Below, piece after piece: positions 5,437 to 8,450 of a stretch of 27,218 nucleotides of DNA (position 1 is its first letter; each line of letters begins with the position of its first letter). The stretch is from Breznakia blatticola. Lineage in GTDB: Bacteria; Bacillota_I; Bacilli_A; Erysipelotrichales; Erysipelotrichaceae. Location: positions 1 through 27,218 of the forward strand of contig NZ_SODD01000035.1 of the NCBI RefSeq assembly GCF_004365815.1. Reading direction: 5' to 3'. The notes under the pieces are model-generated. The model had not been told where the DNA came from and ran no database searches. It saw only the letters and a list, made by a program, of their open reading frames with translations. Position numbers and translations under genes: made by a program.

Positions 5437-5481
5437 ATGATACAAAAACAAAGTTCACAAGTATCATATAAGAAATTATGA
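5437..5481 (+). CDS. 14-codon upstream ORF (MIQKQSSQVSYKKL) whose stop overlaps the next start
   Basis: It has the only good SD in the region (GAAAGGAGA, 4-5 nt before ATG 5437). Its TGA (5479-5481) overlaps ATG 5478 of the secreted-peptide gene (ATGA). Confidence 0.25.
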   Translation: MIQKQSSQVSYKKL

Positions 5482-5780
5482 AAAAATTGAAATACTGCAT
5501 TATTTTAGTCTTATTGGCATTTATGTGTGTTCCTACAGTAGTGCTTGCAACAAACGCAGACTACTCAGATTCATATATGATGTATCGGTATGTTGACGAA
5601 AATCCGAATGATTCAAATTGCACTGCAATAACGGAGCACAATCAAAGATATGCCAATGCAACTGCTGGGATTTATCATTATGCTTGTGGATCGGAGCATA
5701 CACAAAGCAAAGACCCTGGTACTACAGCGAGAGTAAGTTTATACACAAATCAATATAATCATGTTCACACAAGTAAGTAG
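5478..5780 (+). CDS. Small secreted protein; candidate Sec-dependent bacteriocin precursor
   Basis: 100 aa with a Sec signal (MKKLKYCIILVLLAFMCVPTVVLA / TNADY). The mature ~76 aa part is Tyr/His/Asn/Thr-rich with 2 Cys and no TM. It sits first in a cluster with a DUF1430-type permease and an ABC ATPase. Confidence 0.5.
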   Translation: MKKLKYCIILVLLAFMCVPTVVLATNADYSDSYMMYRYVDENPNDSNCTAITEHNQRYANATAGIYHYACGSEHTQSKDPGTTARVSLYTNQYNHVHTSK

Positions 5781-5796
5781 GTAATTGGAGAAACAT

Positions 5797-7800
5797 ATGA
5801 AAAAGATCTTACTTATGTTAAGTGGAATATTTATGATATTCTGCTTTCTCTATATTCATATAGACGCAAGAGAAAAATTTATTCATGAGGAAAGTGTGAA
5901 TACTAGACTAGGATCAAGTCTTGAATTTATGGTCTATGAGTATGAAGAACAAACATACACAAATCAGGATGCTGACTTTATTGTTAAACTAGCAGAAAAA
6001 TACAATGTTAGTGTTGTAACAAATAATGGAAGTACCGAAAACAAAGTTAATCAGTTTGTTGCACTGAATAACAAGGAATTGCTTGAAAGATATAATATAG
6101 ATTCAAATTTCAACTTTGATAAATATGCAGTTTTATCCAGCAATGAACAAATAGCAACAGTTGGACAAATTAATACATTTGACAATACCATAGAACTAAC
6201 AAAACGATCGTTTTATAATGAGTTGAATACACGATTAGATGGTTGGTATTTTGTTTTTGGTGAAAATCGTGAACAGTTTTACCATGAATTTCAAAAACAT
6301 TTTCCAAATCAAATTGAAATAATTGAAACCTATGATGAAGACTTGAATCATGAAGTTACAATGGAGAGAAATCCAAATTATATGAAAATGATTAAATTTG
6401 GGCTGATTTTTAGTTGTAGTGCAATTGTTATTCTTTTGTTAGTTTTTTCAACTGAAAGTAAAGATGTTTCCATTAAAAAAATGAATGGATATAGTAACTT
6501 TAGAATAGTGAAGGATAGTTTATTAGTTACTTCAATTTTGATGGTTATTATTGATGTTGTCATTGTAGCTGTTATGACGGTGCTAAATATACCCAAACTT
6601 AGTGACGTTCATATTCCGATGTTTCAAAATATAATAATTGCTGTTGCATGCAAATATATTGTAATCGCTGTTGTATATTGTATAGTTTTGTTATACATCA
6701 AATCAATTGGAATAAGCATATTGTTAAAGAAAAAGGGAATATCTAAGTTCATTCTCAATGTAAACACGATTATGAGAGTTGTTTTTGTTTTTTTATTAAC
6801 AATATCACTGTTTGATTCCTTACCTGGATTTATAAATACAATTAAAGTAGCTGCTCAGTTCAATGGATTTATTGAAGAGTGCTCTGATTATACACATAGT
6901 ACAGAAATTCAAGGCTTTTTAAATCAAGAGGGGAATGAACGAATATACAAGTTTGCTAAGGATGTTCAAAAAAATGAACAGTACGTCGGAATTTATTTAG
7001 GTAATTATGATAATAATTTGAATCTAAGTTACGCTTGGGTTGATGTAAACTATAACTATTTGAAGAAATATGAAATTTATGATAAGTATAACAAACAAGT
7101 GATTGATCTTGATGAGAGTAAACAGTATCTCTTGGTACCTGAAGAATATGTAAATGATCCAATGTTGTATAAAAAACGAGTGGAAAGATTAAAAGACTTT
7201 TTAGAATTCGAAGAAATTATAATTAAAGACAACCAAAGAATCTTCACCTTTAATCTTAATTATGATGAAGGTAAACTAGGATATATCCAGCAATCACCAA
7301 TCTTAGTGAGTGATGACTTCACATGGGGGGACTTATATTTCAAGAAAAGCAGTGATCCAAACTACGAGAATGCACAAAATATGTTACATGAGTACGGAAT
7401 CGAAAATGAATTTGTTTATTCATTAGCCAAAGAAGAAGGCTCTTTTATACTTGATTTACAATTGTCAACTCTAATATATGAAGCGACAATGATATTGCTA
7501 TATATTTCATTACTAGTTTTGCTTATTGTACAATACTTATTTCTAATGTTTGAAGTGAATCGAAAAGAATATATTGTAAAGAAAATGCACGGATACTCGT
7601 TTATCTCAAGATATGTCGATTTAATTCTATTGTTAATTTGCTCGTATGTGGTGAATTTTATATTACTAATTACTCTAAACTACGAAATTAATTCTTTTGT
7701 TATATTGCTCATTATTCTATTAATAGATATTTTGTTTACTAGCATGGTTGTATATAGACTTGAAAATAAGTCTATCGCTATTGTGTTGAAAGGAGATTAA
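5797..7800 (+). CDS. Polytopic membrane protein of the bacteriocin-associated integral membrane type (DUF1430/TIGR01654-like, FtsX-type permease)
   Basis: About 667 aa from ATG 5797 (GGAG 6 nt upstream). Layout: N-terminal TM, ~175 aa loop, 4 TM, ~210 aa loop, 3 TM. Two copies of a K-K-M-x-G-Y-S motif (KKMNGYSNF, KKMHGYSFI) each follow a TM. Confidence 0.7.
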   Translation: MKKILLMLSGIFMIFCFLYIHIDAREKFIHEESVNTRLGSSLEFMVYEYEEQTYTNQDADFIVKLAEKYNVSVVTNNGSTENKVNQFVALNNKELLERYNIDSNFNFDKYAVLSSNEQIATVGQINTFDNTIELTKRSFYNELNTRLDGWYFVFGENREQFYHEFQKHFPNQIEIIETYDEDLNHEVTMERNPNYMKMIKFGLIFSCSAIVILLLVFSTESKDVSIKKMNGYSNFRIVKDSLLVTSILMVIIDVVIVAVMTVLNIPKLSDVHIPMFQNIIIAVACKYIVIAVVYCIVLLYIKSIGISILLKKKGISKFILNVNTIMRVVFVFLLTISLFDSLPGFINTIKVAAQFNGFIEECSDYTHSTEIQGFLNQEGNERIYKFAKDVQKNEQYVGIYLGNYDNNLNLSYAWVDVNYNYLKKYEIYDKYNKQVIDLDESKQYLLVPEEYVNDPMLYKKRVERLKDFLEFEEIIIKDNQRIFTFNLNYDEGKLGYIQQSPILVSDDFTWGDLYFKKSSDPNYENAQNMLHEYGIENEFVYSLAKEEGSFILDLQLSTLIYEATMILLYISLLVLLIVQYLFLMFEVNRKEYIVKKMHGYSFISRYVDLILLLICSYVVNFILLITLNYEINSFVILLIILLIDILFTSMVVYRLENKSIAIVLKGD

Positions 7801-8450
7801 TGATGGTTGTCGAATGTAAAGATATATCTAAGTCCTTTGGAGAAAATCAGGTATTAAAAGGTTTTTCATATAAATTTGAAAAAGGAAAAATCTATGTTTT
7901 ATATGGAGTTTCTGGAAGTGGAAAAAGCACATTACTGAATTTAATAGGAGGTATTGATAAACCATCTTCTGGAGAGGTTATATATTATAAAAATGATGTT
8001 GTCGATACTAGCAGTAAAACTATACTTTTTAGGAAAAGAATCGCGTATTTATTTCAAAACTATGCTTTAGTTGATAATAAGAGTGTTAAGTATAATTTGG
8101 AAATCGCTTTATCATATGATAATAGTAAAAACAAAACGGAGAAGATGAATCTAGTTTTAGAACGTGTAGGCTTATCAGATTACCTAGACAAAATGATTTA
8201 TACATTGTCTGGAGGGGAGCAACAACGTGTTGCTTTAGCTAGAGCACTTCTTAAAGAAAGTGATATTATCCTAGCGGATGAACCAACTGGAAATTTGGAT
8301 GACAAAAATGCTGAAGTAGTCATCAGTATTTTTAAGCAACTACGAGATGAAGGGAAGACTATAATTATTGCTACTCATGACGTGGAGTTTTCACAGTTTT
8401 CAGACGAAAAAATTGTTTTGAAAAGCAAAAATTCAAATCGCACAAAATAG
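7800..8450 (+). CDS. ABC transporter ATP-binding protein
   Basis: Walker A GVSGSGKST, signature LSGGEQQRVALARAL, Walker B IILADEPTGNLD, H-loop IATHD. Start overlaps the permease stop (TAATGATG); ATG 7803 is an equally good start. Confidence 0.9.
   Translation: MMVVECKDISKSFGENQVLKGFSYKFEKGKIYVLYGVSGSGKSTLLNLIGGIDKPSSGEVIYYKNDVVDTSSKTILFRKRIAYLFQNYALVDNKSVKYNLEIALSYDNSKNKTEKMNLVLERVGLSDYLDKMIYTLSGGEQQRVALARALLKESDIILADEPTGNLDDKNAEVVISIFKQLRDEGKTIIIATHDVEFSQFSDEKIVLKSKNSNRTK

Follow-up and report, generated by a model that had tools for sequence, protein, structure and literature searches.

A probable bacteriocin and self-immunity cassette of lactococcin 972 architecture in Breznakia blatticola, with a peptide outside the lactococcin 972 sequence models

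Lactococcin 972 (Lcn972) is encoded on the Lactococcus lactis plasmid pBL1 by the operon lcn972-orf2-orf3, whose described relatives are streptococcin B (scbABC), mediterrocin, Lmo2776 and Sil. Only a few unmodified bacteriocins bind lipid II, those of the Lcn972 type among them, and the latter are increasingly found to influence gut and airway communities (e.g., mediterrocin, streptococcin B and Lmo2776). The membrane proteins of these operons are in most cases annotated as DUF1430/TIGR01654, and the DUF1430 family is described as one in which many members adjoin uncharacterised small proteins, perhaps bacteriocins. A role of the partner genes in immunity is supported indirectly by the rise in the minimal inhibitory concentration of Lcn972 from 12.5 to 800-1600 AU/mL with plasmids carrying lcn972 together with orf2-orf3 (PMC4055356), and DUF1430 proteins are regarded as the likely immunity proteins of Lcn972-type and mediterrocin clusters (PMC12345188). 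Here we analyse a 27,218-nucleotide (nt) stretch of the Breznakia blatticola genome (contig NZ_SODD01000035.1, positions 1 to 27,218; hereafter the window), in which three open reading frames (ORFs) of the same orientation are flanked by a dnaE-type polymerase and flavodoxin pair on one side and by a series of unrelated genes on the other. An earlier note on this DNA had described them as a three-gene cluster at 5478-8450, and all three ORFs are indeed present. They probably constitute a producer-plus-immunity cassette of the Lcn972 architectural type. What appears to be new is the peptide family, which current models do not see, whereas the kind of cluster, a Sec-dependent Lcn972-type bacteriocin with its immunity genes, is a known one.

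The locus resembles the Lcn972 operons in having three co-oriented, tightly coupled genes for a small protein with a Sec signal, a membrane protein of ~650-740 amino acids (aa) and an ATPase of ~205-220 aa, and pBL1 agrees with it in gene order, gene sizes and start/stop coupling, as do seven further annotated operons of the Lcn972 family (in S. salivarius, the permease annotation is split in two). As in these operons, there are no genes for modification or dedicated export and there is no double-glycine leader, and the genes often lie beside mobile elements. Mature peptides of the Breznakia type measure 75-78 aa, compared with 66 aa in Lcn972, and carry one conserved Cys along with the motifs YSDSYMMYRY and TNRYNHxH, whereas Lcn972 contains no Cys. 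In addition, the S. aureus (L016 6203-6523) and Macrococcus (L018 2293-2607) clusters have an extra YxeA-family gene between permease and ATPase, which is absent from the Breznakia-type cassette.

The second gene starts at ATG 5797, behind a GGAGA Shine-Dalgarno sequence (the automated ORF call had placed the start at TTG 5785). Its Kyte-Doolittle profile shows a first transmembrane segment (TM) at residues 4-22, a loop of 176 aa, four TMs within 199-346, a loop of 218 aa and three TMs within 565-652, so that the arrangement of TM, loop, four TMs, loop and three TMs proposed in the earlier note is reproduced over 667 aa. With eight TMs in total, both large loops are placed outside and both KKMxGYS loops inside, which makes the topology self-consistent. 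The motifs themselves, KKMNGYS at residue 227 and KKMHGYS at residue 595, each follow the first TM of their block, and alignment of the two membrane blocks by hhalign (93% probability, E = 3e-7) supports the suspected internal duplication, over only 35 columns around the motif; the two large loops have no detectable similarity to each other. The protein belongs to the family suggested earlier, since it scores 43.1 bits against Pfam DUF1430 (cutoff 28.2) and matches TIGR01654 end to end (residues 71-670; 94 bits, E = 7e-27), the latter below the 189-bit cutoff. All seven Lcn972-operon permeases tested match TIGR01654, with 101-735 bits as compared with 75-94 bits for the Breznakia-type permeases, and several true Lcn972-locus permeases also fall under the cutoff (101-179 bits). 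Where they align over most of their length, the window permease and those of true Lcn972 operons are 21-26% identical. Thus, it resembles the TIGR01654/PF07242 family in its full-length match, its length and topology class and its C-terminal DUF1430 domain over the Pfam cutoff, and differs from the TIGR01654 model, which has seven TMs in its name, in having eight TMs by hydropathy.

The ATPase gene overlaps the permease gene, as the earlier note had seen (7800-8450): its ATG shares 1 nt with the permease stop (TAATG), and it has its own Shine-Dalgarno sequence, AAAGGAGA. Judging from this arrangement, the ATPase is translationally coupled to the permease. Against TIGR03608 (L_ocin_972_ABC), the ATPase scores 251.8 bits (E = 4e-75), 3 bits below the cutoff of 254.85; the next-best family is FtsE with 182 bits, i.e., 70 bits lower, followed by DarD, PhnC, MacB, LolD and DevA. 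FtsE, DarD, MacB, LolD and DevA belong mostly to the MacB-type (type VII) class of mechanotransmission ATP-binding cassette (ABC) systems, which includes peptide-resistance pumps. Identity to the ATPases of eight Lcn972-type operons (pBL1, E. faecium p4, S. salivarius, S. aureus, E. casseliflavus, Macrococcus, Bacillus and Desulfosporosinus lacus) ranges from 37 to 51%. The partner genes are those of an Lcn972-type operon at the level of protein family.

The first gene encodes a small protein whose signal region is of the n/h/c type, with MKKLK, a hydrophobic core at residues 8-22 and then VLA followed by TN. The cleavage after VLA predicted in the earlier note, leaving a mature part of ~76 aa, fits all six members of the family described below, which combine the n/h/c regions with a cleavage site of the form AxA followed by [TS]N; on these features the peptide is inferred to be secreted via Sec. 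The mature peptide (~8.6 kDa; 8645 Da) is rich in Tyr, His, Asn and Thr, as had been remarked, with 9 Tyr, 9 Thr, 8 Asn, 5 His and 2 Cys. The further statement that it has exactly two Cys is true of the window sequence, yet only C48 (SNC) is conserved: the six-member alignment has G, N or D at the second Cys position in every sequence but that of the window, so that the family has no common disulfide.

Homologues were sought by a word-indexed search of 5.8 billion proteins, an exhaustive HMMER (phmmer) search of 1.84 billion cluster representatives and a scan of species-representative genomes. The family comprises six distinct members in total, three from named organisms (Breznakia blatticola, B. 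pachnodae and Erysipelotrichaceae bacterium MTC7) and three from metagenomes. The MTC7 protein (P0001) is 87% identical to the window peptide and that of B. pachnodae DSM 16784, which came from the genome scan, 62%; the metagenomic homologues are 51% (P0003), 60% (P0005) and 57% (P0006) identical, and P0002 is the gene of the window itself, predicted with 15 residues too few. Searches of JGI metagenome contigs, IMG/VR and PLSDB plasmids added no further members. The six-member alignment has 32 invariant positions and keeps the signal peptide and its cleavage site, with conserved blocks Y-x-D-S-[YW]-M-M-Y-R-Y, N-C-x-A-x-T and T-N-[RQ]-Y-x-H-x-H. Compared with the MTC7 orthologues, the peptide gene has a ratio of non-synonymous to synonymous substitution rates (dN/dS) of 0.11, or of 0.14 in the mature part, the permease and ATPase genes each have a ratio of 0.09, and dS is similar across all three genes (0.4-0.5), indicating that the three have been inherited together and are all under purifying selection. 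On this comparison, the peptide gene is a real one that selection has maintained.

A Pfam and NCBIfam scan of the window peptide at E <= 1 assigned no family. One apparent lead, in which the peptide would be a repeat unit of a surface protein, came from the exhaustive search (P0004, 1149 aa, E = 2.7e-11) and was rejected as an artefact: the score is the sum of eight near-identical repeats, each contributing ~28 bits over 36 residues, and P0004 is not matched by a family profile built without the window sequence. Structure prediction with AlphaFold2 gave a mean predicted local distance difference test score (pLDDT) of 42.2 for the precursor (three-sequence alignment) and 38.6 for the mature peptide (five-sequence alignment). 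These low-confidence models are all-beta outside the signal peptide, a weak tendency, and a Foldseek search of the PDB with the peptide model returned nothing at E <= 0.001 (best E = 3.6); with pLDDT values near 40, the Foldseek output is mere noise.

The models PF09683 and TIGR01653 do not match the window peptide at E <= 1, and PF09683 matches none of the six members at E <= 10 (the Pfam scan covered all six members, the NCBIfam scan the window peptide), while as a positive control PF09683 recovers eight of eight known Lcn972-family members (best E = 1.4e-18), including the very divergent 124-aa E. faecium and 126-aa D. lacus proteins. The suggestions in the earlier note that the peptide does not look like Lcn972 and may form an unrecognised family are both supported by these scans. 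Alignment of the six mature peptides with an eight-sequence Lcn972-family alignment by hhalign gives a probability of 0.75%, and when the family profile is run by hmmsearch against the sequences of the whole PDB, neither 2LGN (Lcn972; the Lcn972 sequence used here is identical to 2LGN_A) nor 9HKJ, the second solved member of the Lcn972 family, is found at E <= 10. In the Lcn972 alignment, G27, G32, Y42, H44 and H49 are invariant (GG.W.YG and Y..H....H). The new family has no conserved counterpart of these invariants, and the spacing of candidate motifs is not collinear; its mature N-terminus reads TN.YY.DS[YW]MMYRY, so that the reported absence of the GG-W-x-YG start is a feature of the whole family. 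The one stretch of likeness named earlier, Y-H-x-x-G-S-x-H (IYHYACGSEHTQS in the window versus SNYHHGSKTHSAT in Lcn972), did not withstand the comparison: hhalign leaves it unpaired, and within the family the His residues of the window's YHYACGSEH vary (H/N, then H/Q/L/N), as does the Ser. This YH..GS.H similarity appears to be a coincidence peculiar to the window sequence. As far as profile methods reach, the peptide is a small separate sequence family with no detectable relationship to Lcn972, and the papers searched contain no description of a non-Lcn972 peptide family attached to DUF1430.

Two readings of this result are of similar standing, each tentative. In the first, the peptide would be an extremely diverged member of the Lcn972 superfamily that retains the six-stranded beta-sandwich and perhaps lipid II binding, in an otherwise ordinary Lcn972-type locus. 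This has a real if limited chance of being correct: the partner genes are those of Lcn972 operons, sequences within the Lcn972 family diverge widely (mediterrocin shares only 18% identity with Lcn972 and still has a similar predicted fold; PMC12345188), and the two groups share a similar size, a basic charge (five of the six members), richness in Tyr and His and a predicted all-beta character. Moreover, the sole segment aligned by hhalign pairs PGTTARVSL with the conserved Lcn972 strand AGVWAKATV. The silence of PF09683, hhalign and the PDB profile search, together with the missing invariants, stands against it. In the second reading, the peptide would represent a structurally new class of unmodified, Sec-exported bacteriocin whose fold and target are unrelated to those of Lcn972 and which is paired with the same DUF1430/ABC genes; this, too, is a minority view in our assessment. 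Since fold prediction was unsuccessful, the data establish a new sequence family and not a new fold.

The three genes are strictly linked. In all six peptide loci, the DUF1430 gene starts 3-20 nt downstream of the peptide gene, and the ATPase gene comes next wherever the contig continues, so the association of peptide homologues with DUF1430/ABC genes, on which the earlier proposal depended, holds throughout. DNA homology with MTC7 begins 4 nt ahead of the peptide ATG and ends 13 nt past the ATPase stop; it thus covers exactly the three genes and nothing beyond, and no gene for modification or dedicated export lies inside this shared cassette. The surroundings differ from one locus to another: a DDE transposase gene lies directly upstream of the cassette in MTC7 (L001 25-1242), a fragmented group II intron reverse transcriptase gene directly upstream in two other loci (L003 512-1685, L004 585-1758), and the neighbours are an FtsX-like ABC pair in B. 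pachnodae and other transporters in L008. Around the cassette in the window, no convincing flanking repeats that would delimit a mobile element were found. Across these contexts, the three genes travel as one cassette. The known members of the family come from Breznakia, the Erysipelotrichaceae isolate MTC7 and a small number of metagenome contigs. Pattern-based locus searches upstream of DUF1430 returned only four genome loci and five metagenome loci, all five of the latter being duplicates of the loci on the E. faecium plasmid and in D. lacus.

Gene order and the homology of the partner genes are the basis on which we infer an antimicrobial activity for the peptide and an immunity role for the permease and ATPase. 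As a plausible mechanism, the first gene would yield an unmodified protein of ~8.6 kDa that is exported by the general Sec pathway and cut by signal peptidase I after VLA and that, by analogy with described systems, would target the cell envelope of related Bacillota from the outside. The ABC machine would combine, presumably, two ATPase copies with a single eight-TM DUF1430 polypeptide, a fused pseudo-dimer in which each half is composed of one TM, a large extracytoplasmic domain and three TMs. Its role would be self-immunity rather than export: ATP hydrolysis would move the outside domains and thereby shield the membrane of the producer from the peptide. The stoichiometry and the MacB/FtsX-like mode of action in this model are suggested by three resemblances to type VII systems, i.e., the ATPase subfamilies, the topology of the half-unit and the basic loop after the second TM ('[KR]xx[ED][IV]s[IV]KKmxGYS'), which is reminiscent of the FtsX-domain signature. 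Unlike MacB, with four TMs, and BceB, with ten, the Breznakia permease would have its two halves fused into eight TMs. Homology proper between DUF1430 and FtsX was considered and set aside (HMMER finds no FtsX or BceB family on the isolated membrane blocks at E <= 10, and hhalign is weak), and the connection is kept only as a suggestion from motif, topology and ATPase class.

Several observations weigh against a functional producer-plus-immunity cassette, some of them general and some specific to the B. blatticola copy. According to the authors of the streptococcin B study, the functions of the B and C genes are experimentally unverified in any Lcn972 locus (PMC11796350). There is no solved structure for DUF1430, and its hhalign match to one FtsX-type protein reaches a probability of 9.6%, weak even with the motifs in register. 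DUF1430 and ABC gene pairs also occur without a gene for a small secreted protein upstream (L013 3968-6811, L020 5001-7773), one of them in an Oscillospiraceae metagenome-assembled genome and the other ~4 kb from a LanM-type lanthipeptide synthetase gene, which means that the transporter pair can stand alone; such pairs may be orphan immunity or resistance modules. In the window, the peptide ATG at 5478 has no Shine-Dalgarno sequence of its own, whereas AGGAGG or GGAGA precedes the ATG by 6-8 nt in the MTC7, B. pachnodae and L007 orthologues. The window's mature peptide, with an isoelectric point (pI) of 5.8, is the only acidic member of the family (8.8-9.5 in the other five, 9.7 in Lcn972). 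Six of its seven window-specific substitutions (Y28D, G45D, G73E, G79D, R92Q and R99S) cut the charge, and four of these six fall in columns that are invariant across the other five members. The window copy may, on these grounds, be weakly expressed or inactive.

The translation start of the window copy can be read in two ways. A strong Shine-Dalgarno sequence, GAAAGGAGAcgtATG (in the context GAAAGGAGA), serves the out-of-frame ATG 5437 of a mini-ORF found only in the B. blatticola genome, and the TGA of this mini-ORF overlaps the start codon of the peptide gene (ATGA, 5478-5481). The mini-ORF may thus drive translation of the peptide by coupling; alternatively, the arrangement could be what is left after the 5' region was replaced. 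Upstream of the peptide start in L003 and L008, at a distance of 27 nt, lie a Shine-Dalgarno sequence and an in-frame TTG, suggesting that the signal peptide has variable N-terminal extensions.

The missing Shine-Dalgarno sequence and the acidic peptide keep alive the explanation that the toxin gene has been disabled or silenced in B. blatticola and that the cassette serves there as an immunity-only (resistance or 'cheater') module against the peptides of relatives, which we judge rather unlikely, if still deserving of attention. It would fit the loss of the canonical Shine-Dalgarno sequence where homology to MTC7 stops, 4 nt before the ATG, the shift in net charge of about -6 through window-specific changes and the orphan DUF1430 and ABC pairs elsewhere. 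However, the peptide ORF is intact, its mature part has a pairwise dN/dS of 0.14, the mini-ORF is well initiated and overlaps the peptide start in the ATGA manner typical of translationally coupled genes, and the excess of window-derived changes in a relative-rate test (7 versus 3) is not significant (p = 0.34).

It is less probable, and in our view unlikely, that the small protein is not antimicrobial at all and is instead a dedicated accessory protein, ligand or signal of the DUF1430 ABC machine, for instance a partner that its outside domains meet on the cell exterior, or a cell-envelope factor. Strict co-occurrence would be expected equally of a subunit or a ligand, the peptide has no recognisable toxin domain, and the YxeA-family proteins of some Lcn972 clusters are likewise extra small secreted proteins; against this, the position of the gene as the first of three and its size match those of the bacteriocin gene in the eight Lcn972-type operons, the cassette is patchily distributed beside mobile elements, as is often the case for competition genes, and the peptide family is tiny and fast-evolving relative to the ATPase. 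That permease and ATPase form a BceAB-type detoxification pump next to an incidental small ORF is highly improbable: the MacB/FtsE-like class of the ATPase, the large outside loops of the permease and a two-component system ~3 kb downstream are compatible with such a pump, but the permease matches DUF1430 and TIGR01654 and no BceB/FtsX family and has eight TMs rather than ten, the two-component system is two unrelated genes away and outside the block in common with MTC7, leaving the cassette without the paired BceRS-type sensor of BceAB pumps, and the small ORF is conserved under purifying selection.

The features of the locus are collected in Table 1. The hairpin downstream of the ATPase gene is likely a bidirectional terminator that closes the operon, as judged from a match to the consensus only; a promoter scan of the window gave as many sites as a shuffled sequence and is therefore uninformative. 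The cassette has a GC content of 28-31%, compared with 33-36% in the housekeeping flanks, so the cluster is more AT-rich than its neighbours, as stated earlier; the low-GC zone is nonetheless not confined to it and runs on through the next gene to about position 10000, and the codon composition of membrane proteins could be a partial cause of the low GC in the cassette.

Table 1 Features of the candidate cassette in the window (nucleotide positions)
Feature	Position	Strand	Basis
Upstream mini-ORF, 14 codons (MIQKQSSQVSYKKL, then stop)	5437..5481	+	read from sequence
Gene for predicted secreted-peptide precursor, 100 aa	5478..5780	+	ORF, alignment, dN/dS
Part coding for the predicted Sec signal peptide	5478-5549	+	cleavage after VLA
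Part coding for the predicted mature peptide, 76 aa	5550-5777	+	
DUF1430/TIGR01654 membrane protein gene, 667 aa, putative permease and immunity component	5797..7800	+	
ABC ATPase gene, 216 aa, Lcn972-operon subfamily	7800..8450	+	
Cassette block in common with Erysipelotrichaceae bacterium MTC7	5474..8463		blastn, 89.5% DNA identity
Perfect GC-rich hairpin (ATCCGTGGAGT...ACTCCACGGAT), T-run on both strands	8664..8709		terminator scan and inverted repeat

Three other observations were made in the window. On the 3' side of the ATPase gene, a non-coding stretch of 57 nt (8527-8580; L001 5838-5894 in MTC7) with the core TAAATTAAGTTAATAC is 79% conserved with MTC7, whereas the intergenic DNA around it is not conserved. 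On the minus strand, a 392-aa ORF (8892-10070) has a lipoprotein-like signal (LSLVGC after an internal Met) and a GC content of ~29%, as low as that of the cassette; it matches no Pfam or NCBIfam family and lies outside the block in common with MTC7. Finally, a gene with an Imm33 domain is found among housekeeping genes at ~15401-15754 (L002 14738-15091), just upstream of an HSP70-like gene; Imm33 is an immunity protein family of polymorphic toxin systems.

The scope of the finding is set by the six known members of the family, one of them in B. blatticola, a bacterium of the cockroach gut. Within this scope, a second, unrelated peptide family on the same immunity machine would untie DUF1430/ABC from a single toxin fold. 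If the peptide is in fact a structurally new class, the DUF1430-ABC pair would be a generic, swappable immunity platform and a genomic hook for finding more secreted toxins, and the motifs YSDSYMMYRY and TNRYNHxH together with the single Cys would point to a new surface for binding the target. A second, unrelated family would also provide a simple genomic rule for mining Sec-dependent toxins, which current bacteriocin finders miss because they are keyed on the PF09683 peptide model, and would add a candidate narrow-spectrum antimicrobial from the Erysipelotrichaceae of the insect gut.

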